This document shows positions 11,254 to 59,150 of a stretch of DNA of 59,546 nucleotides, piece by piece. Source of the DNA: an uncultured bacterium (lineage in GTDB: Bacteria; Patescibacteriota; Minisyncoccia; Phycocordibacterales; Phycocordibacteraceae); the NCBI GenBank assembly GCA_947085985.1, contig CAMTYL010000004.1:1-59546 (forward strand), read 5' to 3'. The position numbers and the translations under genes are program-made. Below the pieces are notes generated by a model. The model made no database searches and had not been told where the DNA came from. It worked only from the letters and a program-made list of their open reading frames with translations. How positions within the stretch are numbered: the first letter of the stretch is position 1; every line of letters begins with the position of its first letter.

Positions 11254-11325
11254 ATTTTTAGACTGGAATTCGTATGACCCAGTACGCCTGAATATAGCCT
11301 GTATTCAGGCTCATGACAAGACGGG

Positions 11326-11398
11326 TGTCGAGGGTGAGGATTGAACTCACGACCGCAGCTTTATGAGTGCTGTGCTCTACCAACTGAGCTACCCCGAC
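11326..11398 (-). tRNA. tRNA with CAU anticodon (elongator Met or lysidine-type Ile2; not distinguishable by eye)
   Basis: Reverse complement: acceptor GTCGGGG/CCTCGAC (one G-U), D arm GCTC..GAGC, anticodon loop CTCATAA, T arm GTGAG-TTCAATC-CTCAC. Confidence 0.85.
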
Positions 11399-15686: not shown

Positions 15687-15759
15687 ACTGTTATATAAGG
15701 GTAATACGGTAAGTGTACCCCACCCCAAACACCAGATAGGCTGTGGAGTGCACAAATGC

Positions 15760-15783
15760 AAAAACCACCCAAAGGTGGTTTTT
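15760..15783 (-). terminator. rho-independent terminator
   Basis: aaaaaccacc-caaa-ggtggttttt, downstream of gene 15849-16703. Confidence 0.7.
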
Positions 15784-15848
15784 GCTGCTGGTTGCGCTGG
15801 TAGGACGAGATTGGCGCTAGATTACGGAACAACGACTAATTTTCTCCA

Positions 15849-16703
15849 TTAGCGAGACGAAAGGGTGATATTTAGGTCGTCTCCTATTAAACTAAATGTG
15901 TTGGCGCGCTCACAGTACTCAATCTCTCCCCGCGAATTAGTTCTGAGTTCTAGTGCTCCTTTTGTGTAAATGCTCCCGTTATCTCCTATTAGTGATGGTG
16001 ACAGTCTCACTGTCTTACCTGTCGCAATTCTGCCTGCAGTGTCCTTCACGATAAAAATTTGACAGTCGTTCTCCTTGCCTCCTAGGGTTGCTGTGTACTT
16101 CTTAAGTGCATAAAGAATACCGTACTGATCATCGTACTGAGACTTATCCTCCGAAGTTGCTGTTATCTTATAATCGTATTCCCTACTCTCCACAAGGTCA
16201 GTTGCTTCAATCTTATGATCGGTGTTTAATCCCCCTTCGGATTCAAAAACCCTCCCTTCCCCATTATCAAAGATCAGGCGTGACTTTGCGGGAATAGTCG
16301 TTGCCCACGTAACAACAGCGGTATTGCCTTTTGTGGTACTTTTTATGTTTTCTATATGAAGTGCGGTCTTTACTGAACCCACCGACGGTCCTGCCACGGC
16401 TTCTTCCTTTGCATTTTGAATTGGAGCTGTCGAGGTTGTAACTGCTCTTTTTACAACCTGATTAATCATTGCGGTGACAGCCTTTGGTTTCTCTGCTCCC
16501 TGTTCACTGTATTGCTCACCGAACATTTGGTCCTGCTCGCTCACTTGTTGGTAAGTAGGTTCGGGAGAATTTGACTTAAAAGGACTTGGAATATGAGGCG
16601 CCGCAAGTGCTCCTATAGCAAAAACTCCTACAAGCAACCCTGTGCCGATACTGTAAAGTGCCCACTTGGGAAGGTGTTCGTATGAGAGGGTCTTTATTTT
16701 CAT
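15849..16703 (-). CDS. membrane-anchored extracellular beta-rich protein, unknown function
   Basis: 284 aa, N-terminal TM helix, no recognisable catalytic motif. Confidence 0.5.
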   Translation of the reverse strand: MKIKTLSYEHLPKWALYSIGTGLLVGVFAIGALAAPHIPSPFKSNSPEPTYQQVSEQDQMFGEQYSEQGAEKPKAVTAMINQVVKRAVTTSTAPIQNAKEEAVAGPSVGSVKTALHIENIKSTTKGNTAVVTWATTIPAKSRLIFDNGEGRVFESEGGLNTDHKIEATDLVESREYDYKITATSEDKSQYDDQYGILYALKKYTATLGGKENDCQIFIVKDTAGRIATGKTVRLSPSLIGDNGSIYTKGALELRTNSRGEIEYCERANTFSLIGDDLNITLSSR

Positions 16704-16792
16704 AGTGTTATGGACGCAATAATTATACCCTTACAGCCCAGTTGAAACCTAAAGAAAGCGTGACCACTTTCTTTAAAGCAATATGCCCAAAA

Positions 16793-16820
16793 GTTAAAGC
16801 CACCCAAGGGTGGCTTTAAC
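16793..16820 (-). terminator. rho-independent terminator of the intron-containing tRNA
   Basis: gttaaagccaccc-aa-gggtggctttaac, 4 nt beyond the encoded CCA end. Confidence 0.7.
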
Positions 16821-16823
16821 TGC

Positions 16824-17115
16824 TGGTTGCGGGGCCCAGAATCGAACTGGGGTCTGGAGGTTATGCTTACCACTACAATTTTCATTGCCCCTTGCGGGTT
16901 TGCGGTCTGGACTATGCCTTCACCCCAAAGGGGTGCCTACCGTCTAGTCTCTACACCTTCCGATTCTCTTTCGAAAAAAGGCTTGGCTCGGCATTGCCTT
17001 TCATTCTCGCGAATGTGAGGGTTTCACCGAATTTGGCAGGTAATCTTACACAGAATTGCTCCTATGCACGCCCGAATTGTTCAAGCCTCCCGAGGTACCT
17101 CTCCTCTACCCCGCT
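16824..17115 (-). tRNA. tRNA (anticodon CAU, initiator-like features) interrupted by a group I intron; exons 17115-17084 and 16865-16824
   Basis: 5' exon AGCGGGG-TA-GAGG-AGAGGTA-CCTC-G-GGAGG-CT. 3' exon CATAA-CCTCC-AGAC-CCCAG-TTCGATT-CTGGG-CCCCGCA-A-CCA. The spliced product is a 74-nt cloverleaf with loop CUCAUAA. It has A11:U24 and an unpaired 1:72 position (A/A), both initiator-like. Confidence 0.8.
16866..17083 (-). ncRNA. group I intron (IC3-like, about 218 nt, no ORF) in the anticodon loop
   Basis: Begins right after a U (GGAGGCU|) and ends in G (..GGUAAG|CAUAA). Contains core blocks I recall from the Azoarcus/cyanobacterial tRNA introns: CAAAUUCGGUGAAACC, GGCAAUGCCGAGCCAAGC, GAAGGUGUAGAGACUAGACGG. 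Confidence 0.75.
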
Positions 17116-17172
17116 ATCCAATAAGTATACATACTATATGGTCAATAGCAATACATCTATTGGAACCAGTAT

Positions 17173-17886
17173 GTGCAAACTAAGACATTGACTCAGTGGT
17201 ATTATTACTACATGAAAGAAGCCGAGCGGGCTCAGGCCCAAATGATGAGGCGCTCCGGAAAGAGCATAAAGACTATTGCTTCCCTTCTAGGGGTGAGCCC
17301 CAGCTCGGTCAGCCGCTGGTGCGCAACGATTGAACTTTCGCCTGCTCAAAAGGTGTCACTTGACGCGGCTCGTCGTGCAGCAGGATTAAAGGCTTTGGCT
17401 CCTTGGGTCGCAAGGAACAGACAACTGAAACAAGCTGACGTTACAGCCCAGCTAGCCGCAGGTACTGCAGATGTTGGGAATATGACTATGCGAGACCTGT
17501 TCATTCTTGGACTTGGGCTATATTGGGGAGAGGGATATAAGCGCGGTAGCCAAGAATGTGGTTTCACTAACTCTGATCCAGCTATCATTCGAACTATACT
17601 CAGGTGGTTTAGAGACTGTTACCAAGTAGATAGCACAAGAATAATTGCTCGGGTGACAATAAACAATCTGTACCGAGCCGAAGCGGAACGCATAATGTGT
17701 GATTGGTCAAAGGATACCCAGATTCCTCTTTCTCAATTTGGATCGCCAAGCTTCATTAGCGGGTACGGAAAATTGTCGAGGGACACACGTACGTACCGAG
17801 GCACACTTAGGATTAAAGTAAGAAACGGCACATCGCTCCGCAGACGCATTCTGGCAAGCCTAGATAGCGTAGCTAGCTCTAAGTAA
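17173..17886 (+). CDS. HTH + LAGLIDADG-like domain protein (possible free-standing homing-endonuclease relative)
   Basis: N-terminal HTH (KSIKTIASLLGVSPSSVSRW). Central FILGLGLYWGEGYK followed by ECGFTNSDPAIIRTILRWF resembles the single LAGLIDADG motif and following strand. Motif-level only. Confidence 0.4.
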   Translation: MQTKTLTQWYYYYMKEAERAQAQMMRRSGKSIKTIASLLGVSPSSVSRWCATIELSPAQKVSLDAARRAAGLKALAPWVARNRQLKQADVTAQLAAGTADVGNMTMRDLFILGLGLYWGEGYKRGSQECGFTNSDPAIIRTILRWFRDCYQVDSTRIIARVTINNLYRAEAERIMCDWSKDTQIPLSQFGSPSFISGYGKLSRDTRTYRGTLRIKVRNGTSLRRRILASLDSVASSK

Positions 17887-18483: not shown

Positions 18484-19917
18484 TTATAGCGCCTCGCCAG
18501 TCACCTGTGCGCCCGCTTTAAACAAAAGCTCTTCGGCACCCTTTGGTGCGGTGAAGTGAATACCTACGGGCAGCAATACCCCATCACGCATAACGTCTCC
18601 CATAGGCACAGAGATAGCGGGCATGCCCGTTAAGTTTGCGGTGACCGTAAAAATATCCTCCAGGTACATAGATACAGGGTCGGACTTCTCCCCAAAACGA
18701 AACGCAGGGGACGGCGTAGTTGGAAACGCAACCACATCGCACATACTAAATGCATTGTCGTACTCGGCAGTGAGCAGTCCTCGCGCCGCGTCAGCCTTTC
18801 GGTAGTAGGCGTCAATGTACCCCGACGACAACACAAAGGTACCCAAAAGTATTCGGCGCTTTGTTTCTTTTCCAAATCCTTCGGTCTTACTGAGCACGTA
18901 GTCCTCAAGTAAATCCTTGCCTCTCGCCGCGTGCCCATAGCGAATACCATCGTAGCGAGCAAGGTTTGCAGACGCCTCCGCTGGCTGTATGACGTAATAC
19001 ACCGGAAGCGCGTAGGGACTGGTTGGAAGTGATACGTCTACCAGCGTGTGTCCTTCTGTCTCAAGGCGTGCAAGTGTCTCCTCAAACAGTGCCAGCAAGT
19101 CCTCATCAATACCCTCCTTAAGAAGATCGCGCGGTACACCGATGCGAAGTGTGGTTGGCACAGGAACGGAGGTGTAGGTATCGTCAGTAATGCTGGTAGC
19201 ATCGTTGGCGTCCCCTCCTTTGATTGCCTCGTACAGCGCCTTGGTATCGGCTACTGTTTTTGCAAACGGACCTATTTGATCAAGCGAAGAACCAAGAGCG
19301 ATAGCGCCGTGACGAGACACTCTGCCGTAGGTAGGCTTTAGTCCCACGAGGCCACAGTGTGCAGCTGGCTGACGAATAGAACCACCCGTGTCAGTACCAA
19401 GCGAACCAAGCGCTCCGTAGGCTGCAACTGAAGCAGCGGAGCCTCCGGAAGAGCCTCCAGGAACACGCGAGGTGTCGCGCGGATTACGTACCACTCCGAA
19501 CGCGGAGTTCTCGGTAGAGCTACCCATTGCAAACTCGTCCATGTTCGTGCGTCCCACAAACAGCGCGCCCGCCTCCTTTAGCTTCGTTATCACCGTAGCG
19601 TCGTAGACCGCCATGTGATTAGCGAGCATCTTGGACGCGGCACTTGCTACGTGCCCCTTTATCAAAATATTGTCCTTAATAGCAAGCGGAATACCACAGA
19701 GAAGCGGTGCCTGCCCTCCCTCCTCATCTATACGTTTTTGTGCGCGAGCGATAGCATCATCGTCTGCGCTAAACAATTCAAGATATGCGTTCAGTTCTTC
19801 GTTTCGCTCGCTCGCCGCGAGTGCGCAGGCGTCCCACAGCTCTCGCACGGTACACTCGCCCGCGCGCAACATGCGCGCTGCCTCTGTAATGGTGAGTTCG
19901 TTACGTAACTTAGTCAT
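18484..19917 (-). CDS. gatA: Asp-tRNA(Asn)/Glu-tRNA(Gln) amidotransferase subunit A
   Basis: 477 aa, amidase signature GGSSGGSAASVAA, full-length GatA-like; overlaps the gatC stop. Confidence 0.93.
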   Translation of the reverse strand: MTKLRNELTITEAARMLRAGECTVRELWDACALAASERNEELNAYLELFSADDDAIARAQKRIDEEGGQAPLLCGIPLAIKDNILIKGHVASAASKMLANHMAVYDATVITKLKEAGALFVGRTNMDEFAMGSSTENSAFGVVRNPRDTSRVPGGSSGGSAASVAAYGALGSLGTDTGGSIRQPAAHCGLVGLKPTYGRVSRHGAIALGSSLDQIGPFAKTVADTKALYEAIKGGDANDATSITDDTYTSVPVPTTLRIGVPRDLLKEGIDEDLLALFEETLARLETEGHTLVDVSLPTSPYALPVYYVIQPAEASANLARYDGIRYGHAARGKDLLEDYVLSKTEGFGKETKRRILLGTFVLSSGYIDAYYRKADAARGLLTAEYDNAFSMCDVVAFPTTPSPAFRFGEKSDPVSMYLEDIFTVTANLTGMPAISVPMGDVMRDGVLLPVGIHFTAPKGAEELLFKAGAQVTGEAL

Positions 19918-20229: not shown

Positions 20230-22251
<2,022 letters not shown>

Positions 22252-40512: not shown

Positions 40513-40586
40513 GCGTCCGTAGCTCAGTTGGTTAGAGCTCGGAGCTTATACCTCCGCGGTCCCTGGTTCGAGTCCAGGCGGACGCA
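40513..40586 (+). tRNA. tRNA-Ile (anticodon UAU)
   Basis: Acceptor GCGTCCG/CGGACGC, D arm GCTC..GAGC, anticodon arm CGGAG-CTTATAC-CTCCG, T arm CCTGG-TTCGAGT-CCAGG. Confidence 0.88.
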
Positions 40587-40613
40587 CCCCAATAGCTTCT
40601 AGTGCCCGAACGA

Positions 40614-43550: not shown

Positions 43551-43958
43551 GGGGGTGACCGGCTTTGACGGTCTTGTACTTTGAGAGACGTGCGACGCGG
43601 TGGAAGTATGCTGACCACCTAAAAACGTATGCAACTAAACTTGCCAAGAATTCTCTTGCAAGCGTAAAGTCTCCTTACTTCGGTAAGTCGGATTTTGCGT
43701 TCGCTTACGCGTAAAAGCTTCGCGCTTTCGCCTGAGCGACATCTTATCTATCCCGGGTTTCGTAGCGGGTAGGTAGGGTGGAATCTTCTACGGAATCGGT
43801 ATCTAGGGCCTCCCTGCCCCAGGCTTAAAAGATGGGATTGGGTGCGAGTGGTTTCGCTTTTGTTTTTACACTCACACCGACACTTCAATAGAAGCTACGC
43901 GTCGTAGACTCGCTCTTAAAGCAAGATTCGGACCGGAGTTCAACTCTCCGCACCTCCA
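43551..43958 (+). ncRNA. ssrA: tmRNA (SsrA)
   Basis: 5' GGGGGUGACCGGCUUUGACGG pairs with 3' CACCUCC-A, including the G3:U70 alanine identity pair. T arm CGGAG-UUCAACU-CUCCG. The internal tag frame ends ...GKSDFAFAYA-UAA (stop at 43712-43714). The gene sits next to smpB. The resume codon is not determined. Confidence 0.85.
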
Positions 43959-45590
43959 CATGGTTTCATGATTAGGCACGAAAGTGCCTTTTTGTGTATA
44001 TTCTTCCTGGTTTTCTAGAGGTTCTAACCAAACACCAAGAGAGCTTGCTTCAAGTAGAACCTGTACCGGTTTTTCCGTATTCATAGTGAGTATTCCCTGG
44101 TCGAGAACATGCTCATCACCTAGAGCAGCAATAATGGCTCTTCGCTCCAATACTCCGCCTTTAGCAAACTCCTCACTGGCTCGTTCAGCAAACGTCATGA
44201 GTCGTTCAGCGTCATCTATCCAGGTCTTGAATCGTTGGTCTACTGACTCAATTTCAACTTTTAATCTTCGTTCCTCTGCTTCAAGCGTTGCTCTTCGTTC
44301 CTTATATTCATCACCCTCAATCTCGCTAGCCAGTCTCATCTCAAAGAGCGTTGTTAGCTGCTGCTGTGTGGCCTTGAGTGCCCGTTCCTGCTTGTAGAGG
44401 ATAGAATCCTTATCATTGGATTCCCTTTCATATTCAGTACGGAGTTCAGCCATAGCCCACTCGTGGAATCGAGCGTCTATCTGAATTGAGGAGAGGAAAT
44501 CAGCGAACACTACTTCTAATTGCTTTTCGGTTATAGACTTCTGCTTACAATCACTCTTTATCTTCCCTGTGCAACGATAATAGGAGTATTCGTGGTAATT
44601 CCCATTCATCTGGGTCTTAGTCTTCTTTTCGCAGGTTATCCTTGCGCCACATGCACCACAGCGCATAAGTCCGGTATACGCGTGGACATGAGTGGTGCTT
44701 CTTGGCTTTCCTTTCTTTCCTAGCAGTCTTTGCACCTCATCAAATTGAGCTCGCGTAATTAAAGGCGTGTGTGTGCCTTGGTAAGTGATGATTTCGACGT
44801 CCTTATCTCCCCTCCTCACAGACCAAGTAAATTCGCCGTAGTAAAAGGAGTTGTTGAGAATGTTATAGAAGCCGTGTATGGATAGCGGCCTCCCGTTCGG
44901 ATTCCTGACTGTTTTACGCGCCCTCATGCCCCACTCCTTTACTGACAGCATATAGACCTGAAACGGCGTGTACTTGCGTGAAAGCAGAGTATCGAAAATC
45001 TTCTTTATTAGTACGGCATTGTGTTCGTCTATTTCGCAGACCTCTGGCTTACCTTTCTCCCTGAATTTGGTGTTCTTATAACCAATCGGAGCAAGGCACG
45101 GACGGAAGCCTCGCCGAAGCGACTCCATCTGTCCACGCTTTATATGCTTCTTGAGGTCGCGTGAGTACTGCGTTGAGGAACTCATTTCGACAGACCACAT
45201 GATTGTGTGGTCATCGGGGTAGAGATCTCTGTCGGTAGCCTTTATATTCTTGATGATTTCTTTCTGGAGAAAGTACTTAATCTCCCCTTCGTCAATTGAG
45301 TTGCGTGAGAGACGGTCAATTTTGAAACATAGGATTGCATTCGCATTCCCTTCCTCGATGTACCTCATCATTGCCGTAAACTCAGGTCTTTGCCGAGGCT
45401 CGCTTGCAGATACCGTCTCAGTAAACTCTTTAACGACCTTTAACCCGTACTTTGAAGCTAGCTCGTGGACTTCATTAAGCTGCGAAAGGATAGAAGGTAC
45501 GCCAACATCCTCCTCGGTCCTATTGGCCTTAATCGAGCGTCTCGCATAGATAACATATTTAAGCCCCTTATCTCTATCCTCCCTGTACAT
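43872..45590 (-). CDS. large serine recombinase (integrase)
   Basis: Resolvase catalytic domain (YVIYARRS ... FKIDRLSRN), recombinase domain, zinc ribbon (CGACGARITC ... YYRCTGKIKSDC) and coiled-coil. Start set to ATG 45590 (the track start at 45635 is TTG). The last ~30 codons overlap ssrA. Confidence 0.88.
   Translation of the reverse strand: MYREDRDKGLKYVIYARRSIKANRTEEDVGVPSILSQLNEVHELASKYGLKVVKEFTETVSASEPRQRPEFTAMMRYIEEGNANAILCFKIDRLSRNSIDEGEIKYFLQKEIIKNIKATDRDLYPDDHTIMWSVEMSSSTQYSRDLKKHIKRGQMESLRRGFRPCLAPIGYKNTKFREKGKPEVCEIDEHNAVLIKKIFDTLLSRKYTPFQVYMLSVKEWGMRARKTVRNPNGRPLSIHGFYNILNNSFYYGEFTWSVRRGDKDVEIITYQGTHTPLITRAQFDEVQRLLGKKGKPRSTTHVHAYTGLMRCGACGARITCEKKTKTQMNGNYHEYSYYRCTGKIKSDCKQKSITEKQLEVVFADFLSSIQIDARFHEWAMAELRTEYERESNDKDSILYKQERALKATQQQLTTLFEMRLASEIEGDEYKERRATLEAEERRLKVEIESVDQRFKTWIDDAERLMTFAERASEEFAKGGVLERRAIIAALGDEHVLDQGILTMNTEKPVQVLLEASSLGVWLEPLENQEEYTQKGTFVPNHETMWRCGELNSGPNLALRASLRRVASIEVSV
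43974..43993 (+). terminator. rho-independent terminator of ssrA (lies inside the recombinase ORF on the other strand)
   Basis: aggcac-gaaa-gtgcct followed by TTTTT, 16 nt after the tmRNA discriminator base. Confidence 0.7.
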
Positions 45591-45777
45591 ATGATTTTGA
45601 TGGCCAAAGCTGAGCGTAGGTCTGTCTGAATTCAAGCAATTCGTTTGCGTCCATCTTTTCGAGAGGCGTTGTGCAAATCATGATGAGCGTCTGCACCAAC
45701 TCCTCCCGCGACATGGACTCAATCTGATGAATCATGTCCGCGACTACATAGTCTCTAAGTTCCTCGATGCTATTCAT
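45574..45777 (-). CDS. small hypothetical protein (island)
   Basis: 67-aa ORF overlapping neighbours by a few nt, in an operon-like array upstream of the recombinase. Confidence 0.4.
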   Translation of the reverse strand: MNSIEELRDYVVADMIHQIESMSREELVQTLIMICTTPLEKMDANELLEFRQTYAQLWPSKSYVQGG

Positions 45778-45958
45778 GGTTGAAGTTCTTAGTGAATCTC
45801 ACAACGAGCTTGCCGTACTGGTCTCGGACAAATGCCCTCTTACCCTTCGGGAAGCCTGATTCTTGTAAGATTCTGGCGACAAATTGCTGTTCTGCTTTCT
45901 TGGTCAGGTGATTAGCTTCTTTTCTAATAATCTTTCTCTCTGGGAATCTACTTGACAT
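45770..45958 (-). CDS. small basic hypothetical protein (island)
   Basis: 62-aa ORF overlapping the next gene by 8 nt. Confidence 0.4.
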   Translation of the reverse strand: MSSRFPERKIIRKEANHLTKKAEQQFVARILQESGFPKGKRAFVRDQYGKLVVRFTKNFNHE

Positions 45959-46207
45959 GCTGGATATTTCTATCGTATTAGGCGCGTTCCAAATGTACAG
46001 GTAGTTCTATATAGAAGTGTTCACATCACATTTAGTTTTCTGGTGGGTAAAGTCATTTCCAGTAATTCTTTAAAAAATTGGAAAGCTTATTTTTTGTTAT
46101 TATTTTTAATAATTAATCTATCTATTGTGTTGCTCACCAGGAGTACGCTTTTTGTAGCTTCTGTATCCTTGCGATAACACTTGTGTACCCCTGGAATACC
46201 AGCTGCG

Positions 46208-46861
46208 TTAATCCACTGCGAAACGGACTTGTCCTCCCTGCTTCTTCTTTTGAAGGTAGAGAATGAGTTTTGGTAGCTTCGTCTCCATTTCGGAAGGACA
46301 AACGATTACGGGCGCGTATTGCTCTCCATTCGTCGTGAGTATCGTCTGGATGTAGTACTCGAGAGTTTCTGGTCCGTAAGCTGTGAGCATCCGTTCGATA
46401 GCGGCTCGCTCCTTCCTCCTTCTCAGATACCCGTCTGTAAGCCCTGGTGCTATCGGCTTGAATAGCTCGATTAGATGAACGACTATCGGGGAAGGATTTG
46501 AATCCTCAACCTCCTCGTCATGAGTCGTCTCCTTTAATGCGAGGTGTATCACGGTAGTCTTGTACTTCTCTCTCACAGTCTTGATGAAGCCAAGTTCCTC
46601 AAGTTTATTTAGGGAGCGAGATACCTGTGCCCTGCTTACACCAGAACCGTTCTGCTTCTTTCCTATGCCATTCGTAAACTGAGAGAGGCTTATGGCATCA
46701 CTAGTCTTTCCCCAACCCAGCGTGCGTCTTAGAATGAAATCTAAGATCTTCTGGTCGGCACCTGAAAAAAGATGCCAATAATTTTCAAGCTCAATAGGGT
46801 ACGTGAAAAAATCCTTCTTGTACCGTGCTCGAAAGCCAGGAAAATTAGATGACGTATCCAT
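46208..46861 (-). CDS. replication-initiator-like winged-HTH protein (phage Rep-O-like N-terminal domain)
   Basis: KILDFILRRTLGWGK...ISLSQF...GVSRAQVSRSLNKLEELGFI matches the pattern of phage replication protein O-type N-terminal domains. Motif-level only. Confidence 0.45.
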   Translation of the reverse strand: MDTSSNFPGFRARYKKDFFTYPIELENYWHLFSGADQKILDFILRRTLGWGKTSDAISLSQFTNGIGKKQNGSGVSRAQVSRSLNKLEELGFIKTVREKYKTTVIHLALKETTHDEEVEDSNPSPIVVHLIELFKPIAPGLTDGYLRRRKERAAIERMLTAYGPETLEYYIQTILTTNGEQYAPVIVCPSEMETKLPKLILYLQKKKQGGQVRFAVD

Positions 46862-47114
46862 AAGGCATTGATTCCTGTCCTGTCATTACTCCAAGGAGGC
46901 AACGAGCGATTTTGACTTCATAGTACTTTTCAGAAACCATCTCCTGAATGATGTCTAGATATTCCTTGATAGTCTCGTAATCCTCGTATCTCACTCGTTC
47001 TATCGCGTCTAGCGAGTAAACGTACATTGCGTCGTTACGCTCACTATCCATAACCAGTTCGTTGATGAACTCTAGTTGGCTCAATAGATTGTCTCTTGCA
47101 TCATCTTTACTCAT
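46845..47114 (-). CDS. small acidic hypothetical protein (island)
   Basis: 89-aa ORF overlapping the downstream gene by 17 nt. Confidence 0.4.
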   Translation of the reverse strand: MSKDDARDNLLSQLEFINELVMDSERNDAMYVYSLDAIERVRYEDYETIKEYLDIIQEMVSEKYYEVKIARCLLGVMTGQESMPYGYVI

Positions 47115-47120
47115 GTTGCG

Positions 47121-47306
47121 TTAATTTTTTACTAATTGTCTTGGGCTACCGTAGACACTTATGTAGAGGTTGAGCAGGTAGCGAGCCGCGTGTTCTAGCG
47201 CCTCCCCTTCTAGCAATTCCCCGTACACTTGCTGATAAATCGCCTGGAACTCCTTGAGACTTTCTTCCCTCCAGCACAAGGCTGGAGGCTCGCGCGTGTG
47301 AGGCAT
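47121..47306 (-). CDS. small hypothetical protein (island)
   Basis: 61-aa ORF in the same array. Confidence 0.35.
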   Translation of the reverse strand: MPHTREPPALCWREESLKEFQAIYQQVYGELLEGEALEHAARYLLNLYISVYGSPRQLVKN

Positions 47307-47324
47307 ATAATCTTTTGAACCCTC

Positions 47325-47624
47325 TTACTTGAGAGGTGCTTCTTCTTCCTCAACAGCGGCGAATGCGACGCTTTCGTACAGGTCTTTTAGAAGCTGTATG
47401 TCAGTGAGAAGTGCGTAAGCGATGTCTGATTTGCCGTCTTTTGCTGTAGGTGACAAATCTTCATCACCTGAGAGGATGTCAATGCTATCTATTGCATGTG
47501 CCAGAGCCTCCCATGTCTGAGTGGTGTGCTGGATAAAAGCCAGATGAGTCTCGTATCCGTGCGCGACTGCGTTTACTACTTCTTCCTCAACCGCCTTCTT
47601 TGTTTCCCCTTTCTTCTTGCTCAT
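47325..47624 (-). CDS. small acidic hypothetical protein (island)
   Basis: 99-aa ORF, first gene after a 10-bp-arm palindrome (47647-47680). Confidence 0.4.
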   Translation of the reverse strand: MSKKKGETKKAVEEEVVNAVAHGYETHLAFIQHTTQTWEALAHAIDSIDILSGDEDLSPTAKDGKSDIAYALLTDIQLLKDLYESVAFAAVEEEEAPLK

Positions 47625-47780
47625 AAATCATTTGAGTTAATCGAACTTAATAAGTCATCGCGGCCGCTTTGACTTATTAACCGTAGCCGAAGAATGCTGG
47701 ACAAACCAATCTACGTGTTTTATAAAATTAACAACCTTGTTTATATATCCGTAAGAAACACCAGGTAATTTACACGCAAA

Positions 47781-47805
47781 ATAAGGCCGCTTTTGACGGC
47801 CTTAT
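47781..47805 (-). terminator. rho-independent terminator
   Basis: ataaggccg-cttttga-cggccttat followed on the minus strand by TTTG; downstream of gene 47838-48590. Confidence 0.65.
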
Positions 47806-47837
47806 AAGAAGTGTTGTCCACTCCCCTTCAAATCGGG

Positions 47838-48590
47838 CTAACCTTTTTTCTTGAGTAAAGTCTTTTTCTTCAAAAGATTTATGGGGTTGCTTATCGCGGC
47901 ATAATCTTTGAGGAGTTGTTCCAAGACGAGAGATACTTCGCTCAGTTCTTTCACGCCACGCGGACTCGAATCAACAAAAGTCCTGACCCAACCTGCTTTA
48001 CCTTTTTCGAGAAAGGCCTTCTTAAAGTTCTGGCTTAGTTCTTCATTTGACCAAACAAGTAGAACCTTGCCTTTAGTTCCGCTATTAGTGTGCACCCGCC
48101 GTACATCGGTTGACGCGATTGAGTTATCAGGAAACCAAACCTTCTTGCCTTTGGCTTTTACAATAAAAATAAGAACGGGATGCGTCTTTACCGTTCCTGA
48201 AAGAATCCGCATTAAGTCTGTGCGAGTTTTAACGGAGAGATAATCAACTCGATATCCTATCTTTTCAGCAGACTCTCTCAGACGTTTTGCCTTATCGGAG
48301 TATTCCTCTATCGCGGCAATTGTCATGAAGCTACGACGACGCACATCTTCGTAATCGCCACCGAGCCTCCTCATACCCTTTAGCTCTCCTTTATTCCAGA
48401 GCCTAATGAATTCTTCAACGTTCTTTCTATAGATTACGTATCGCTTACTTCGACCTTCGCCTCGATACTTGGGTTGAAAGATGTCGCTATGCATATCCAC
48501 CTGCTTTCTCACGGAAGCGATATTCTTCCAATGAAGCAAGCCCGAGTCGGCAAGCTCGTTAAGTGTGAAGAAATCCTTGTCGGCAGCCAT
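47838..48590 (-). CDS. excisionase-like HTH N-terminal domain protein with unknown C-terminal domain
   Basis: N-terminus FFTLNELADSG...GEGRSKRYVIYRKNVEEFIRLWNKGELKG is paralogous to both halves of ORF 58321-58869 and fits the MerR/Xis-type HTH_17 pattern. Confidence 0.5.
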   Translation of the reverse strand: MAADKDFFTLNELADSGLLHWKNIASVRKQVDMHSDIFQPKYRGEGRSKRYVIYRKNVEEFIRLWNKGELKGMRRLGGDYEDVRRRSFMTIAAIEEYSDKAKRLRESAEKIGYRVDYLSVKTRTDLMRILSGTVKTHPVLIFIVKAKGKKVWFPDNSIASTDVRRVHTNSGTKGKVLLVWSNEELSQNFKKAFLEKGKAGWVRTFVDSSPRGVKELSEVSLVLEQLLKDYAAISNPINLLKKKTLLKKKG

Positions 48591-48718
48591 GCCTCCATTC
48601 TATCGCCTCTACCCAGAAAGCACCTCGTTTATGGGTACTTTCATCACGGCCATATGAAACCATACCTATACCCTTAGCTGTGCCTTAGAGAGGAACGCAG
48701 AGCCTCACGCGGGCATTA

Positions 48719-49186
48719 TTATTTGGTTGATGAGGAGTCTTTGGTCTGGATAGTCCCTCCAAGCAGTTCCTTGAAGCTGACATCACATTTCTTCATAGCT
48801 GGATTGAGGGTCATCATCACTTTAAATGGTGAAGTCTGTCCGGCAAGGATGGGGTTGTACTCAGTGAGAGCAGAATCGGAATTTATGAACTGACCATCCG
48901 AGGTGTATGTCGTTCCGACTGCCGTGACATTCTTGAGGGATTCACTACTGATGTTTTTAACCTGACCTGAAATCGTAAAGAAGCCGTACTCCGTGGTGCA
49001 CTTGTAGCTAAGGAGTTCGAGCTGGTCTGCTTTTGCGACTGCGGGAGCACCGGCTGTTGAGGAACCTTTGCCTGATAGAGAATCCGAGATGCTCCCTACT
49101 ATGACAAGGCAGAAAATAATGAGCACGGTAGCGAGAAGAATTTTCCCGATACGGGGTTTTGGTTTTGGAGTGTCTCCGTTATTCAT
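48719..49186 (-). CDS. membrane-anchored extracytoplasmic protein, unknown function
   Basis: 155 aa, N-terminal TM helix (ILLATVLIIFCLVIVGSI) then a beta-rich domain. Confidence 0.5.
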   Translation of the reverse strand: MNNGDTPKPKPRIGKILLATVLIIFCLVIVGSISDSLSGKGSSTAGAPAVAKADQLELLSYKCTTEYGFFTISGQVKNISSESLKNVTAVGTTYTSDGQFINSDSALTEYNPILAGQTSPFKVMMTLNPAMKKCDVSFKELLGGTIQTKDSSSTK

Positions 49187-49193
49187 GGAATTC

Positions 49194-49327
49194 GTGTCTA
49201 GCGATTTTTATAATTCCGGTGGGTAGCACAAAACCCGCCACCAGGAGAGGCCGAAGCCTCCTATAGAAGTTTCCCTCTATAACGCTAGACACGCCCTGAT
49301 GACGGGTTTTCTGGTGTCTAGCGATTT
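49194..49327. repeat. Three copies of a GTGTCTAGCG(ATTT) motif (two direct, one inverted) in a GC-richer intergenic region
   Basis: gtgtctagcgattt at 49194-49207 and 49314-49327; inverted core cgctagacac at 49283-49292; further local hairpins between them. Confidence 0.9.
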
Positions 49328-49404
49328 GCAGCCATGCCAGAGCCGAGGCTACTGGTTTAGGCCGACTGTTATTCAGTTGTCGAACACATAGATATGGTAA
49401 TACC

Positions 49405-50616
49405 TTACAGGGCCTCTGTAAAACTTACGTTACTCGTTATGCTCTTTTTAATAATCTGATTGATTCTAGGATCATACATAAACTCATCAATTCTGTTTGA
49501 AATAATTAGGTCAATTACTTCCTCCATTAATTTAATATCAACCTTAAACCATTCACGAGGTCTATATGATATTCCCTTTCTATCTAGAAGTTCGACATCT
49601 AGCTTTACGGTTGAAAAGAAATCATGAATTTTTTGTTCAAGGCCATGGGTCTGAATATTTAGACATCTGAAAGTGGAAACTACATCAACGTCATCAAATA
49701 AATAAGTTGCTTCGTTTTTCGCATTTTTAATTCTCTCTGAAACAAGTCCTGACGTATAGCCTATCTTGTACAAATCCTTAATGCTTTGGACACTTGCGTT
49801 GCGACTCTTTAAGACATATATGTATCCATTTAACACATCGGACTCCTCTGTCGTGTCTTTTGAGGTGGCGGTATTTTCAATCTTTCCAATTGAATAACCG
49901 TCGAGTTGCATTGCTTTATCCAAAGAACGAAATAGCATTTCCGATTGGGTGCCATTGTCAAATATGCACAAAGTACGGCCATCAAATCGATCTCTTTTCC
50001 CGCTTACATATTCGTATTTATCAACATCACCATTGATACTTTCTAAATAGAGCAGGACACCATTCAAGACATAGAAGCTTCCTTCCCTCAGGTCTGCTGA
50101 GTCGTATTTTGTTAACCTTCTCTTTTTTGACTCTAATTCCTCGTGCAGAACATTAAACATTTCTTTATACCGAGAAAATTCTTTGTTAACCTTACGCCTT
50201 GAGAGGAAGTCGGGCTTGATTCTGTCACTGGGCCTTACATGTCTCAATTTAAAAATATCTGAGTCTGCAGTTTTACTAAGCAAACCTAGCGGATCATTCG
50301 AAATGATATCTTCTACTGTCACTTCCTTTACTTCACCACCCTTGAGCAGACCATTAAAGTCATATTTCATTAGTTCCCTGACTTTTTTGGGATTTTTTCT
50401 GATTGCATGAAGTCGGGAGGCAAGTTTGAATTCAATAATATTTGAGATATCCGATTGAGGTTCTCTTTTGTGTTCTTCAAAATACTCTTGTATTTCTTCA
50501 AATGAAGATACCAAGATGCTGTCCTCATGCGATACAGGTCGTTTAGTAGACGTATTCTTGAGCAATCCGAGAGGGTCATTCTTTAGAAGTTCAAGAACGT
50601 CAGACCTCTTGCTCAT
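49405..50616 (-). CDS. T5orf172 / GIY-YIG-like nuclease-domain protein
   Basis: C-terminal domain GYIYVLKS...LYKIGYTSG...R...E..IH..F...REWF fits the T5orf172 (MUG113, GIY-YIG-like) pattern. The N-terminus has two NDPLGLL repeats. ATGA overlap with the helicase stop. Confidence 0.7.
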   Translation of the reverse strand: MSKRSDVLELLKNDPLGLLKNTSTKRPVSHEDSILVSSFEEIQEYFEEHKREPQSDISNIIEFKLASRLHAIRKNPKKVRELMKYDFNGLLKGGEVKEVTVEDIISNDPLGLLSKTADSDIFKLRHVRPSDRIKPDFLSRRKVNKEFSRYKEMFNVLHEELESKKRRLTKYDSADLREGSFYVLNGVLLYLESINGDVDKYEYVSGKRDRFDGRTLCIFDNGTQSEMLFRSLDKAMQLDGYSIGKIENTATSKDTTEESDVLNGYIYVLKSRNASVQSIKDLYKIGYTSGLVSERIKNAKNEATYLFDDVDVVSTFRCLNIQTHGLEQKIHDFFSTVKLDVELLDRKGISYRPREWFKVDIKLMEEVIDLIISNRIDEFMYDPRINQIIKKSITSNVSFTEAL

Positions 50617-52556
50617 ATGTTTTGCTCACTATTAATTTGTCGTAGATAGACCAGTGCCTCTGCCATTCTCCTCTCAAGTGGGTCCAGGGCATCAAAACTA
50701 GGTTCCTTACCTTTAATGAGGAAGAAATCCTGTATCTTAGGCCACAAGATAATAGCTTCATCATCTGTCATCTGAATTTTAAGCGCCTGAATACACTGCT
50801 GTACTGCCTTAAAGACCCTTGGACTCAATTGTTTAGACATAACCTCGAAAGCATTCTGAAACGGATTTATCGAGTAAATCAAATCCATGTTCAGTTCAAG
50901 AACATTCACTAGCCTGTTGGCAAAGACTATAAATTTATCGTTACCCTGCTCGACAATATTACTTGCTCTAACCACGGAGCTTACTGCAACGTAATCACCC
51001 AACTCTTTAAGTTCATCTTTGCTTAAGTCCGGGTAAATCTCTTGGATTACTTTCGGAATGAGAGCTCTGTTCAATACGTCTGGGTCTACCACCCCAGGGA
51101 ATGAACTCTGTATCTCAGGTGATTGAAGAATCTTTGCCTTCAAATCAATAAGGTCGTTATCAATGATTTCTCTTAAACGTGCAGAGCTTGGTTCTTTGAA
51201 CCCTTTTATGAAAATATCAACACCATTCGTATTGCCTTGGTCAGATTCCTTAGATCTAAAACTAAATTTAGGTGCCATTACTTCCTCCATTAGCAATGAT
51301 GCCGCTATTGCTTTAAGCATGTTATTTACACTGTCAGCAATATCCTCACTTTCTGCGTCTGGTTCAGCAATAAGGTTCGTGAATTGAGCATGGCTTTTAT
51401 TCTCGCTATCACGTGTGCAACGTCCAATGATTTGAATAATCTCGGTTAACGAACCACGGTACCCAATTGTCAGAGTGTTCTCACAAAATGGCCAGTCGAA
51501 ACCTTCCTTAGCCATTCCAAGAGCAATTACCATATCGATGTCATCTACCGTCTTCACATTGCGGAGATATGCCATAACCTTATCCCTCTCTAAGGGATTA
51601 TCGTTAACCAAGTCCGCTATTTTGATAGTCCTTCCGTCCGCACTTTTTAAAGAGATTATTCCGTGCTCATCAGTAGAAACATACGTGCCAATATGGTCCA
51701 AAATCGAGTCTACTTCGAGCATTTTCTCTTTAGTCGATTCAGACGCATTCACGCTAGGAATATGAATTATTGTCTTCTTTTTGAGGTCAATTATCTTAGG
51801 AATTGCGTCTAAGTATTTTCCTTTATAGAAATGGAAACCAATCCCTAGCGATTTAAGGTACTCGTATCCATTAAGCTGCTCGTAATAGTTGTACGTTACT
51901 TTTGTAAATTTCTGCTCATCCTTTGGTGACAAAACAGCAACTGAGTCACCGCGAAAATATGACCCAGTCATCGCCAGGATGTTAGCGTTGGTATTCTGCA
52001 TGATATTGCTAAGCAACTGCCCCAACTTACTTTCTATGTCCGTTGAGACATGGTGAAACTCATCAATTGCAACAAGGCAGTTGTTGAATGCCTCGAAGCC
52101 AACTTGATCGAAGGCAAATCTCAAGGTTGAATGAGTGCAGAGAATAATTTTTGCATCTGACTCCATGAACCTTTTAAAGGCAACGGTCTTCCTCTCTTCC
52201 CCGCCAGGTGAGCAAAGATCATATTGAGGATCGATTACCCAATCCGAGTGAAATCCGTCCTGGGATAAGTTTGTGGACGCAAAAGATTTGGCAATTGACC
52301 TTTCAGGGACTGCAACGATAATTTTTTTAACTAAATTGTGTTTGAGTTTCTCAAGGGCAACATACATTAGGGCTCTAGACTTGCCTGAACCTGGAGGTGC
52401 TTTTAAAAGCAAATACTTGGAATCAAATTTTTGGTATACCCTTCTTTGCATTTCACGCATCCCTTTACTGTCAGCAAGTATGCTGCTTCCATCGTGTTCG
52501 TATTCGACATTAATTAGATTTTCCATTTTGGGTAGCGGTATTTTCGTATAAGCCAA
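50613..52556 (-). CDS. SF2 DEAD/DEAH-box helicase (ResIII-like)
   Basis: Walker A KAPPGSGKS, motif II AIDEFHH, motif III MTGSYFRGD, motif VI QIIGRCTRD; about 200-aa helical C-terminal extension. Confidence 0.8.
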   Translation of the reverse strand: MAYTKIPLPKMENLINVEYEHDGSSILADSKGMREMQRRVYQKFDSKYLLLKAPPGSGKSRALMYVALEKLKHNLVKKIIVAVPERSIAKSFASTNLSQDGFHSDWVIDPQYDLCSPGGEERKTVAFKRFMESDAKIILCTHSTLRFAFDQVGFEAFNNCLVAIDEFHHVSTDIESKLGQLLSNIMQNTNANILAMTGSYFRGDSVAVLSPKDEQKFTKVTYNYYEQLNGYEYLKSLGIGFHFYKGKYLDAIPKIIDLKKKTIIHIPSVNASESTKEKMLEVDSILDHIGTYVSTDEHGIISLKSADGRTIKIADLVNDNPLERDKVMAYLRNVKTVDDIDMVIALGMAKEGFDWPFCENTLTIGYRGSLTEIIQIIGRCTRDSENKSHAQFTNLIAEPDAESEDIADSVNNMLKAIAASLLMEEVMAPKFSFRSKESDQGNTNGVDIFIKGFKEPSSARLREIIDNDLIDLKAKILQSPEIQSSFPGVVDPDVLNRALIPKVIQEIYPDLSKDELKELGDYVAVSSVVRASNIVEQGNDKFIVFANRLVNVLELNMDLIYSINPFQNAFEVMSKQLSPRVFKAVQQCIQALKIQMTDDEAIILWPKIQDFFLIKGKEPSFDALDPLERRMAEALVYLRQINSEQNI

Positions 52557-55098
52557 ACAGGTGCTTTATCCTCTCCATGTCAGATACGAAGGCTTCATCT
52601 TTATAACATGAATCTATCTCTTTATCAAGACTATCATGCAAGATTTTAAGTCTTTCAGGGAGAGCACTGTAAAGACTTCCTAGGCTTATGTCGCTGAAAT
52701 TTTCCCTCTCATTTATTATGTCACCAACTAACGAGGTTATGTGATGCTTCTTTTCTGAAGTTATTTCTGGAAATGGAAATGTGTTATACCCGAGTTGGCT
52801 TGAGTATCGAAGCCTTGTTTCTAGATTTCCGCACACGGTACGAATCCAGACCATATGCATCTGTGATGACACTAGTCCGAAAATCCAAGGTTCGCAATCG
52901 TATACAGCAAAAGCAAGGTTCGACACGATTGTGTCGCTACCTACGAAGCCGATTGGAATGTACTTCCTCTTTTCAGACGAGACTGATGGCACTACCAGGG
53001 TCTGAGAGTGTGTTTCTCTGAACTCTCTAAATTGATACGGACGTTCCGCAAGTCTACGTGCACCAGCATCTCTTTTAGATAACCTGAATTCCCTTACTCT
53101 ATCAACCCTTTCTTTTACTGCCTGAATTGAAGTGGCTTCTTCTACCTCATCTGAGTCTATCCAAAGACACCACCGCTCAATACTGTTTATAAATTCGTCC
53201 GAGCCGACTAGTTTTTTCAGAAACTTAGAAGCTTTAGGCGAATCTGTCGTAAGCTTGACCATTTCTTCCTTACTAAGAAGAAGATTTTGGTCATCGTATG
53301 GCATGTTGCCTTTCTGCATGACAGGCAATTCTTTAGATACAGGTTTCCTCTCCTCTTTAACTATTGTTCTCGTTGAATTAATTAGATATGGCCCAATACT
53401 ATCGGTGTATATGACTTTATTATCTGCATACAAATATTTAGTCTCTCGTTGGTTGTTTGAGTCAGTTAGCGCGACAATGATTACCGTCACGCCCGTAGAA
53501 GGTGTTGCGTCACCCCTCCATTTAAATGAACGATAAGCGAAAGAAATGTCACAATTGAGAGCATAAATTTTACTCCACACAAACGAAACCTGTGTACCCT
53601 GACAAATTGAATTTGTAATCACCAGGGCACATTCAGACTTCGACCCCTTAATATACTCAGCCGATTTGTATAGCCAGCTAGCACTATAGTCTGTGTCTCC
53701 CAAACGCTCAGAATCAAACACCGATTGCATTTTCTTCTTCTCTTGAGATGAAATCTTTTTCGCACCTTTAAATTCAGGACTTCCAATGATATAGACATTG
53801 TCATTGTTTGGACAGGCATCCTTCCAATTTGAAAGAAGCTGGTCCCCCTTTTTAATATTTACGTTGTTGTAGGTACTAAGTAAGTCACCTTCTTCAAAGA
53901 ATTCATTGCTGTGCAAATACTGCAAATACGAAACCCAGAGCGTTAGGTGAGAGAATTTAAATGACAAATCGTTATCTACCAAGCCGATAAAGTTATTAAG
54001 ATTAACTTCCCTGGAAGGATTTTGCCCTTTTAGCTTATTGATAAGTGTCAGCAGATCAACAATGCTTGTAAATGAAGATGACAAGAAACAGCCAGGGCCA
54101 TTTGTTGGGTCAAAGAAAACCTTGTTAAGCAGTTCCTCCTTTATTTTTTGAAGTCTCTCTGCATCATCTTTATTTATAGAAATTAAATCTTCGTACTTAT
54201 TTATAAATAGCGGATTCAATAATTTAGCTATATTGTTGTGAGAAATAAAACGCCCGTAAATACCTGGATTGCTGTCCTTCTGCGTCAGCTTATAGGTAAG
54301 AGTACCCAGTACTTCTGGGTCAATATTAATTAACTCATAACATAAGATCTTTGCGGAGAGTTCAAAACTGATTAGATTTATATGCGGTAGTGTATTTTTG
54401 GTGTGCCCAAATCTTCCAAAGAAGGGCAACTTGGCAAAGGATGCATCATTCGTAATATTTTCTAATGTTGCATCAAAAATACCTTTGATTTGGAAATTGT
54501 AGTCTAATTCTTGTGAAGCAAATATCCATTGAAAGTATTTCTCTATCTCTTTGTTCTTGGTGATTGATTTACTGAAACTTAAGTAAACAAGCGACAATGC
54601 GTAGTCGGTAATCTCCTCTCCCAAAGAATCATTTTTCTTATCGAGACTTAACTGATTAAATAAACTTGCCATTAACTCCACGAAATCCAGAGTCGTTGTC
54701 AGGTCTCTTTCATCTGTCTTGCCGTATATCAACGGATTAAAAAAGCTTACATGTTTGTAAACTTCATTTGGACTAAATTCAATTAATTCATCCGTAACTA
54801 AATCCTTGCACATAACAACGTTGGAATTTAATAAAACAACAATTCTCGGAGCCTCTGTTAAACCAGCTTCAACAGAAGCAAAATCATCTTTACTCACTAT
54901 GCTTTTATCGTAGATAAAAACGGCTCTTTTGTAGATATAGATTGGTTTTAAAAAGGACTGTTTCTTGGCATTCTCAATTGATCGTTTAATTGTCGAATCT
55001 GAGATTTGTAGTGCCGAAAGTAGCTCCTCAATATATTGGGAAACTTCAATGAAACGAATTCCTTGTAATGAGTTAGTTATTTCGTTAACAGTCCTCAT
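52510..55098 (-). CDS. MmeI-family (type IIL R-M enzyme-like) protein with non-canonical catalytic motifs
   Basis: Colinear by eye with MmeI as I recall it: RIVVLLNSNVVMCKDL.. / SAM motif I FFDPTNGPGCFL / motif IV position YIIGSPEFKG / ITNSICQGTQVSFVW / FINSIERWCLWID / RKYIPIGFV...FGLVSSQMHMVWIR...RLRYSSQLGYNTFPFP. Confidence 0.75.
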   Translation of the reverse strand: MRTVNEITNSLQGIRFIEVSQYIEELLSALQISDSTIKRSIENAKKQSFLKPIYIYKRAVFIYDKSIVSKDDFASVEAGLTEAPRIVVLLNSNVVMCKDLVTDELIEFSPNEVYKHVSFFNPLIYGKTDERDLTTTLDFVELMASLFNQLSLDKKNDSLGEEITDYALSLVYLSFSKSITKNKEIEKYFQWIFASQELDYNFQIKGIFDATLENITNDASFAKLPFFGRFGHTKNTLPHINLISFELSAKILCYELINIDPEVLGTLTYKLTQKDSNPGIYGRFISHNNIAKLLNPLFINKYEDLISINKDDAERLQKIKEELLNKVFFDPTNGPGCFLSSSFTSIVDLLTLINKLKGQNPSREVNLNNFIGLVDNDLSFKFSHLTLWVSYLQYLHSNEFFEEGDLLSTYNNVNIKKGDQLLSNWKDACPNNDNVYIIGSPEFKGAKKISSQEKKKMQSVFDSERLGDTDYSASWLYKSAEYIKGSKSECALVITNSICQGTQVSFVWSKIYALNCDISFAYRSFKWRGDATPSTGVTVIIVALTDSNNQRETKYLYADNKVIYTDSIGPYLINSTRTIVKEERKPVSKELPVMQKGNMPYDDQNLLLSKEEMVKLTTDSPKASKFLKKLVGSDEFINSIERWCLWIDSDEVEEATSIQAVKERVDRVREFRLSKRDAGARRLAERPYQFREFRETHSQTLVVPSVSSEKRKYIPIGFVGSDTIVSNLAFAVYDCEPWIFGLVSSQMHMVWIRTVCGNLETRLRYSSQLGYNTFPFPEITSEKKHHITSLVGDIINERENFSDISLGSLYSALPERLKILHDSLDKEIDSCYKDEAFVSDMERIKHLFGLYENTATQNGKSN

Positions 55099-56913: not shown

Positions 56914-56916
56914 ATA

Positions 56917-57093
56917 TTAGTTCCCTCCCGTGTTAGAGCTAGCCTTGATAAAAGTCTCTAAATCCTTTTCTGATACCCTCCAATGCCCTACCTTGGATGC
57001 TTTTAGTTTCTTACTTTTGATATGCCGAAGGATAGTGCGGTCACACACCTTAAGCCTGTTCGCAGTCTCTTTTATGGTTAAAAGTGTATCCAT
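56917..57093 (-). CDS. small HTH DNA-binding protein (excisionase/MerR-type, 58 aa), first gene of the operon; not in the ORF track
   Basis: Hand translation of the minus strand: MDTLLTIKETANRLKVCDRTILRHIKSKKLKASKVGHWRVSEKDLETFIKASSNTGGN. Classic HTH_17 pattern. The stop lies 3 nt before the MTase start. Confidence 0.7.
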   Translation of the reverse strand: MDTLLTIKETANRLKVCDRTILRHIKSKKLKASKVGHWRVSEKDLETFIKASSNTGGN

Positions 57094-57180
57094 GTACAGA
57101 ATTGTCCTGTTTTGTACTATAGAGTATAGGGAAGTACAGATATATACCTAAATATACCGACATGTCCTGTATTGTCATAT
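57094..57180 (-). promoter_or_regulatory. Putative promoter/operator region of the HTH-MTase-MmeI-like-helicase operon
   Basis: Dense short direct repeats directly upstream of the HTH gene: tgtcctgt(t/a)ttgt at 57103-57117 and 57163-57177, gtacaga at 57094-57100 and 57134-57140, atatacc twice (57142-57158). Confidence 0.45.
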
Positions 57181-57280
57181 TACAATGACGGCTCGTAAAA
57201 TCCTGAGGCTATCCCCAGCTTGTGCAAGATTAGGTGGCCGTGACAGAACATCCTGGAAAGAGTTGTCTGGCAAAGAGAAC

Positions 57281-58210: not shown

Positions 58211-58320
58211 TACCAAGAATAATAGCTCCCGACGGGAGAAACTCAAAAGTCCGAGATTCTCTTAACAGCTTAGACCCTCCTAGGGTTCCTGGGTCTCAAC
58301 TTTTTCGCTTCCTTATTAAA

Positions 58321-58869: not shown

Positions 58870-59150
58870 AGCACCGCCTTAAGGCGTTGCCGAGGCGATT
58901 TCTATTATTTCGAGAATCTCGCAGATTCTATATCGGCACCCCTGAAATGAGGTATTCGTATTTTGATAAGGAGGTTGGTGATGGGAGGTTCTAATCTCAA
59001 AGCACCCGAGTTCTATATTTGTATAGATTGATTACCCTCTACTCATTTTGATACCCTACCAACTGTCCACCACAGAGAGGAAATATGAGGCTCTGCTTTC
59101 CAATAATGAGGTTCTAACCTGACGTAACCAGTTCCACTAATTTAATTGTT

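Follow-up and report, generated by a model that had tools for sequence, protein, structure and literature searches.

What interrupts the tRNA gene on the minus strand at 16824-17115, and does the cell that carries it start translation with a tRNA that must first be spliced? Having analysed the whole 59,546-nt stretch of DNA in which the locus lies (the window), we consider it very likely that this is a chromosomal Patescibacteria tRNA-fMet(CAU) gene, interrupted between U33 and C34 by a 218-nt, ORF-less IC3 intron of the fMet.2Ug class. The parts of the locus are the following, with coordinates along the window.

17124..17151, minus strand: promoter-like site TTGCTA-16-TATACT, ending 8 nt upstream of tRNA position 1, found by consensus scan.
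17084..17115, minus strand: 5' exon, tRNA positions 1-33 (acceptor 5' strand, D arm, anticodon stem 5' strand, C32 and U33).
16866..17083, minus strand: group I (IC3-type) intron, 218 nt, ORF-less, inserted after U-1 (17084) and ending in omega-G (16866).
16824..16865, minus strand: 3' exon, with the anticodon CAU, A37, A38, the anticodon stem 3' strand, variable loop, T arm, acceptor 3' strand, A73 and CCA.
16784..16826, minus strand: terminator-like hairpin (an inverted repeat), beginning at the CCA end, with UUUU after it.

The first-pass annotation had proposed two minus-strand tRNA halves 218 nt apart, 17115-17084 and 16865-16824, and both are there to be read: the 5' half is AGCGGGGTAGAGGAGAGGTACCTCGGGAGGCT and the 3' half is CATAACCTCCAGACCCCAGTTCGATTCTGGGCCCCGCAACCA, with a genome-encoded CCA at its end. 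Joined, they are called tRNA-Met(CAT) by ARAGORN, in agreement with the 74-nt cloverleaf and the anticodon loop CUCAUAA that had been claimed for them. The intervening RNA was said to start after a U and to end in G; U17084 indeed precedes it and G16866 is its last nucleotide, which puts the insertion between anticodon-loop nucleotides 33 and 34 (CU/CAUAA; here and below, a slash within such a string marks a splice site). As to the flanking signals, the promoter-like site is weak evidence, since one site was found where 1.0 is expected by chance. The hairpin has 19-nt arms that are 89% complementary, and it drew no call from a terminator scan.

Standard gene finding handles this locus poorly. 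In its default mode, ARAGORN did not detect the interrupted tRNA gene at 16824-17115; in intron mode it found the split gene, called it tRNA-Ser(UGA) and placed the intron after position 36/37. We reject that placement, which offers neither a U-1 nor an omega-G and is contradicted by intronless alleles. Because standard tRNA finders miss or misread the interrupted gene, genomes like the source of this window would appear to them to be without an initiator tRNA, an annotation effect that has been noted for other bacteria (tRNAscan-SE 2.0 paper). The plus-strand ORFs drawn across the locus (16827-17018 and 16892-17191) had been taken for artefacts, and rightly so: they run antisense to a conserved structured RNA, in 10 of 22 homologous introns each of the three antisense frames is broken by stops, and the indels among homologues are not multiples of three.

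Where exactly the intron begins and ends is fixed by intronless alleles and by introns at the same site in relatives. In L001 and L012 the uninterrupted tRNA, which lies downstream of gatA, reads …GGAGGCT/CATAACCTCC… (in a longer form …GGGAGGCT/CATAACCTCC…, and, as read downstream of gatA, …CTCGGGAGGCT/CATAACCTCCAGAC…), which matches the predicted spliced junction GGAGGCU/CAUAA; the 5' exon of the window is identical to the 5' half of both genes. L002 carries a homologous 220-nt intron at the identical site, and L084 and others have homologous introns at the same U33 position.

That the insertion is a group I intron, as first proposed, is borne out by a covariance-model match and by a covarying P1-P9 fold. 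The Rfam model Intron_gpI (RF00028) matches 16885-17102 (-) with 53.3 bits in a search of the whole window (E = 9.4e-11), just 3 bits above the gathering score of 50, and nothing else notable was found in the region; homologous introns in relatives score 58.6-69.8 bits. Rfam's own alignment of P1 was set aside, as it pairs D-arm and anticodon-stem bases and has mismatches, and was replaced by GCU/UGAA paired with UUCGGGC. The three core blocks quoted in the first-pass annotation are present and match the Azoarcus-type tRNA-Ile2 seed 'Aol6.Ile2.5Ug' of Williams' alignment.

We drew the P1-P9 fold by hand on the window sequence after the Azoarcus/IC3 plan, including P5a, P6a, P9a and P9b, and 69 of its 69 pairs are standard pairs in the window. 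It consists of these elements.

17070..17086, minus strand: P1, GCU/UGAA with UUCGGGC; the 5' splice site lies at its U33·G wobble.
17047..17068, minus strand: P2 hairpin, closed by a GCAA tetraloop; in six of its nine pairs both sides change; recovered in the MFE fold.
16987..17040, minus strand: P3 5' strand, J3/4 AAA, and P4-P5-P5a (GCGA loop) to the P4 3' strand.
16956..16986, minus strand: P6/P6a hairpin with a GAAA loop.
16909..16951, minus strand: catalytic core, comprising P7 5' GAGACUA, P3 3' GGUAGG, P8, J8/7 and P7 3' UAGUCC.
16869..16906, minus strand: P9 three-way junction with P9a (GCAA loop) and P9b (GAAA loop), seen in the fold, in covariation and in the MFE structure.

Pairs were counted in a MAFFT alignment (A1) of 20 introns from different species. 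In these homologues 91.5% of cells pair, a share that falls to 34-38% once the partners are shifted by 1-3 columns. Both sides have changed in 32 pairs, and 0 of 500 shuffles attained the pairing or the covariation score of the real alignment. Most of the covariation is carried by P3 (100% paired, with two covarying pairs), P5, P5a (5/5 pairs covary), P6a, P8 (4/6 pairs), P9a and P9b. P7 (GAGACUA/UAGUCC, including the bulged A that is usual there) shows no change in any of the 20, nor do the U-1·G pair and omega-G (the column of G16866); never varying, P7 is uninformative on covariation. An independent MFE prediction for the entire pre-tRNA also contains the acceptor, D and T arms, together with P1-P6, P8 and P9 (z = -2.46). 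The loops of P2, P5a, P6a, P9a and P9b are all of GNRA type, and the same P9 architecture is found in Williams' seed alignment, including the seed Tpc1.fMet.2Ug. A fold that is conserved and covaries in this manner is under selection, which argues for a working ribozyme; judged by its sequence and fold, the window intron is probably active.

The 5' splice site has a peculiarity of its own. The partner of U17084 is a G in the UUCGGGC strand (17070-17076), and this U·G pair is found in 20/20 homologues; directly beside this U33·G wobble stands a second one formed by intron U+1 (17083-17084 with 17072-17073). The second pair is U·G in 13 of the 20 homologues and C-G in the other 7. Two adjacent wobbles could make the choice of 5' splice site ambiguous, so that it falls to ribozyme geometry to decide; were the cut made one base further on, the anticodon loop would have 8 nt.

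From these elements we propose the following course of events. The pre-tRNA would be transcribed from a promoter just upstream, and its intron would fold into P1-P9. An exogenous guanosine nucleotide would then attack the phosphodiester after U33, held in the invariant P1 U·G wobble, after which the G-binding site in P7 would take up omega-G (16866). U33, its 3'-OH now free, would attack after omega-G and the exons would be ligated, giving a 74-nt tRNA with the loop CUCAUAA and the encoded CCA. Splicing carried out in silico agrees with such a product: 21 of 22 genes with the U33 intron were called tRNA(CAT) once spliced, the exception being cut by a contig end. Splicing of the window intron in vivo seems probable to us.

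Many group I introns need protein cofactors in vivo. On this general knowledge, the intron could be a true group I intron whose efficient splicing in the cell nonetheless needs a host protein or chaperone, an alternative that we regard as unlikely. Small IC3 tRNA introns self-splice efficiently in vitro, as is reported for the Azoarcus intron (Tanner and Cech 1996), and the cyanobacterial fMet intron is called self-splicing in the title of a 1994 paper (Biniszkiewicz et al. 1994). The window intron, for its part, has the full P2-P9 set, including a tetraloop-bearing P2 and P9b.

Which tRNA is interrupted is the next question. The first-pass annotation had pointed to A11:U24, an unpaired 1:72 position and two of the three G:C pairs, all of which are visible in the ARAGORN drawing. 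A11:U24, which here follows from the D stem GAGG/CCUC, marks initiator tRNAs. In the spliced tRNA, position 1 forms an unpaired A1×A72, where the canonical form is C×A (relatives have C1×A72 in some cases and U1 in two), and G2:C71, C3:G70 and A73 are present. The anticodon stem is A29:U41/G30:C40/G31:C39, so the strict run of three G:C pairs is absent. The determinants recognised by the formylase are the lack of a Watson-Crick 1:72 pair, G2:C71, C3:G70 and A73, and alpha-proteobacteria and some mycoplasmas have natural initiators with an au/GC/GC stem, G30:C40 being the essential pair (PMC5389676).

The CAU anticodon is common to initiator, elongator Met and Ile2 tRNAs, and the interrupted gene might accordingly encode an elongator tRNA-Met or else, like the gene that hosts the Azoarcus intron, a lysidine-modified tRNA-Ile2(CAU). 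The incomplete G:C run and the A rather than C at position 1 would fit this, and group I introns are known at the same loop position in both kinds of tRNA ('Gba28.Ile2.2Ug' in tRNA-Ile2 and 'Sba135.Met.2Ug' in elongator Met). It is opposed by the 1×72 mismatch, G2:C71, C3:G70, A73, A11:U24 and G30:C40 (PMC5389676), by C1×A72 in some relatives, by an acceptor 3' strand that ends CCCCGCA before A73, and by the GCGGG-type 5' strand that cyanobacterial initiator exons share. The window also holds another tRNA(CAU), at 11324-11398, which is elongator-type because it has G1:C72, C11:G24 and no G:C run. AUA is read by a tRNA-Ile(UAU) at 40513-40588 (+), which makes a lysidine tRNA-Ile2(CAU) unnecessary; decoding of AUA by a UAU anticodon, without lysidine, has been reported in a few bacterial groups only. 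Finally, the gene order fMet, Met, Asp, Thr is common to the window and its relatives. From the determinants, the elongator tRNA(CAU), the tRNA-Ile(UAU) and the shared gene order we conclude that the interrupted tRNA is the initiator, and we hold the elongator or Ile2 assignment to be most improbable.

If the intron failed to splice and a functional initiator tRNA stood elsewhere in the genome, the gene would be dead, and the two exon matches in one related assembly, JBBTRC01 (L145 and L196), might be read that way; we give this scarcely any credence, as the exons match intronless alleles over the aligned parts (34 nt at 100% in the 5' half) and fold perfectly, the intron core is conserved with covarying helices, the intron kept by L084 is 93% identical and differs in P2 and P5a by compensatory changes, and the matches listed include a single exon match for each of 118 of the 119 related assemblies. 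No second initiator-like tRNA was found within the 59.5-kb window. The interrupted gene of the window is therefore likely to be the only initiator tRNA gene of its genome, and the initiator tRNA supply of the cell would then depend on splicing.

The genome around the tRNA is chromosomal, with a gatA amidase gene at 18484-19917 (-) and the gene for an NAD-dependent DNA ligase (ligA) at 20230-22242 (-). In a search of 185,579 species-representative genomes, the best relatives of GatA were Patescibacteria (CPR) MAGs: L001 at 77%, and L002 (Ca. Parcubacteria) and L012 at 68%. The nearest syntenic relative among the matches listed, L084 (CAYITJ010000002.1), shows 76-80% DNA identity on both sides of the tRNA. 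By these sequence relationships, the host is a CPR bacterium of the Paceibacteria/Parcubacteria, near Ca. Kaiserbacteria. A phage origin, which the many tRNAs and the tmRNA had suggested, was rejected, as the flanks are chromosomal and the best relatives are Patescibacteria MAGs. Within the phage collection searched, the intron core found two matches only, at 75% identity. One lies in Pelagibacter phage HTVC120P and the other in an uncultured marine phage (MH598807.1 19675-19771 and KT997847.1 22152-22235, ~75%); both stretches lack annotation and are probably group I introns that were overlooked.

To follow the gene through its relatives, contigs were scanned with a 21-nt string from the 5' exon, which gave at least 119 loci, almost all in Patescibacteria-type or 'bacterium' MAGs and one labelled Bacillota. 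Three states of the anticodon loop emerge among the matches listed (~120 related genomes). About 82 loci (~69%) are intronless. An intron of 205-322 nt stands after U33 in 22 loci (~19%), and those of the same subtype as in the window are mostly labelled Ca. Kaiserbacteria, Parcubacteria and Paceibacterota; the complete Kaiserbacteria chromosome OY969413.1 has the intron too. A different intron, of 243-340 nt, stands after U36 in 15 loci, plus 3 cut by contig ends (~14%). No gene among these matches carries both.

The U36 intron ('fMet.5Ug') resembles that of the window in that it occupies the same tRNA gene, with near-identical exons, in sister genomes and without an ORF, and when it was removed in silico, 15 of 15 genes were called tRNA(CAT). 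It differs in its site (CAU/…G/AA) and in its sequence (CAUGUGAAAACGUGACC…), which is unrelated to the window intron. Examples are at L011 6975-7310, where Rfam Intron_gpI scores 60.2 bits, and at L088, L100, L104, L108, L114, L124, L125, L150, L155, L194, L195 and L197.

How does the window intron stand to known classes? fMet.2Ug is one of the four classical IC3 classes in bacterial tRNAs, and fMet.5Ug is among 17 new ones (Williams 2020 preprint). Metagenomic assemblies from unnamed phyla come second to cyanobacteria in that survey, with 0.49 interrupted tRNA genes per genome (Williams 2020). A wide scan with the intron 3' end joined to a canonical initiator 3' exon found at least 120 loci, in cyanobacteria (including Scytonema hofmanni, Nostoc and Trichodesmium) and further in Nitrospirota, Rhodothermales, Saprospiraceae, Actinomycetota, Omnitrophota, Chlamydiae, Anaerolineae, Planctomycetia, Elusimicrobiota, Bdellovibrionota, Proteobacteria and other Patescibacteria. 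The window intron thus belongs to a widespread class that has been known since 1994 and was first described in cyanobacteria.

Identities to the window intron must be read against the 59% that shuffled sequences score by the same measure. They are 93% for L084, 80-89% for other members of its own subtype, 72-79% for a second Paceibacteria subtype, and 72-81% for copies in other phyla including Scytonema hofmanni (L265), whose copy is 72% identical; the Scytonema, Nostoc and Trichodesmium copies lie at 72-73%. By a slightly different measure, other IC3 tRNA introns (Leu, Arg, Thr, Ser, Ile2) reach 58-71%.

The closest known counterpart is the cyanobacterial tRNA-fMet intron (Synechocystis PCC 6803, Scytonema hofmanni, Dermocarpa), with which the window intron shares the initiator host, the U33/C34 site, U-1, omega-G, the IC3 core and a P9/P9a/P9b three-way junction ending …GGUAAG. 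The two are set apart by the Patescibacteria host, the A:U/G:C/G:C anticodon stem and A1×A72 of the window; moreover, the window intron begins UGAAC and extends P1 by four intron-internal pairs, whereas most other fMet.2Ug introns begin CAA. The Azoarcus pre-tRNA-Ile(CAU) intron ('Ile2.5Ug') is likewise a small ORF-less IC3 ribozyme in a CAU-anticodon tRNA, with near-identical core blocks (CAAAUUCGG(C/U)GAAACC, GCCGAGCCAAGC and GAAGGUGUAGAGACUAGACGG), but it stands after U36 instead of U33, in tRNA-Ile2, has a different P1 and P9, and is 62% identical overall. The cyanobacterial and plastid tRNA-Leu(UAA) intron ('Leu.3Ug') shares the IC3 fold, with ~63-71% identity, yet occupies another tRNA and is inserted after U34.

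Unlike the Synechocystis-type copies of ~650 nt that encode relatives of I-Ssp6803I, the window intron has no ORF. Among the wide-scan matches listed, about 19 of 99 mapped copies are 635-695 nt long and most are 235-330 nt; many of the long ones encode a protein of ~150-177 aa, including one in Patescibacteria, L234. That protein matches PDB 2OST chain A ('Putative endonuclease') with E = 1.6e-61, an entry that we take to be I-Ssp6803I. ORF-bearing copies of ~650 nt occur in several phyla (L212, L220, L221, L233, L234, L252, L277, L282, L313, L315 and others), and in several of the ~650-nt copies the ORF is truncated. A tblastn search found no I-Ssp6803I-like gene in the window or in ~135 related loci. 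The endonuclease ORF is optional, and does not define the fMet.2Ug class.

Two neighbouring ORFs were considered as possible mobility genes of the intron and rejected. The ORF at 17173-17886 (+), which diverges from the tRNA promoter region, encodes 237 aa with an N-terminal HTH_23/HTH_38 and weak matches to transposase N-termini; as an intron-linked homing endonuclease or transposase it fails, since the region around it is simply syntenic with L084 (80% DNA identity) and its HTH matches are weak. The 284-aa ORF at 15849-16703 (-) has an N-terminal membrane anchor, and was dismissed as an integrase or endonuclease for want of any Pfam, NCBIfam, PHROGs or PDB match.

This second ORF lies in a setting of its own. 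A 48-nt direct repeat (15749-15796 and 16784-16831, 81% identity, 1035 bp apart) copies the initiator tRNA 3' end and hairpin. The membrane-anchored ORF stands between the two copies, and syntenic L084 is without this ~1 kb. The segment looks like an att-type insertion at the tRNA 3' end, without an integrase. Of 123 exon matches among those listed, 20 likewise have the tRNA-fMet 3' end duplicated 140-3300 bp downstream, with varied small cargo (for example L001 4841-4883/5923-5965, L143 3008-3042/5273-5307 and L105 5412-5430/5912-5930, besides others), and insertions seem to recur at the initiator tRNA gene of this lineage, as at a hot spot.

Further along the window, a tmRNA gene occupies 43551-43961, and directly after it the GC content drops from ~0.52 to 0.37-0.46 (region 43551-59546). 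An island-like set of genes follows: a large serine recombinase overlapping the tmRNA 3' end, a RepO-like protein, T5orf172, a helicase, an MmeI-type restriction-modification fusion, two C5 methylases and DUF4268. A LOOT RNA (RF03000, 73.1 bits) lies between ORFs of this low-GC stretch at 49246-49363 (-). The region 43551-59546 is probably a genomic island integrated at ssrA, with its right end beyond the window.

For the organism, one further reading may be considered. CPR symbionts are generally held unable to make nucleotides de novo, and splicing needs a free guanosine nucleotide; the intron could therefore tie initiator tRNA supply to guanosine scavenged from a host. Extended to the lineage, about one third of Paceibacteria-type species would mature their single initiator tRNA via either intron, which would act as a guanosine checkpoint and not as a neutral parasite. 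We think this very unlikely; were it true, translation initiation would be coupled to the guanosine pool scavenged from the host.

What is new here is modest: the host lineage, the UGAAC-type P1 extension, and the presence of one or the other of two ORF-less introns in the same initiator-tRNA anticodon loop in about one third of Paceibacteria-type genomes among the matches listed. Known group I intron and translation-initiation biology are left unchanged. The finding extends the host range of the classical tRNA-fMet intron to a CPR lineage, and the patchy occupation of a single anticodon loop makes this lineage useful for studying intron gain and loss without homing endonucleases.
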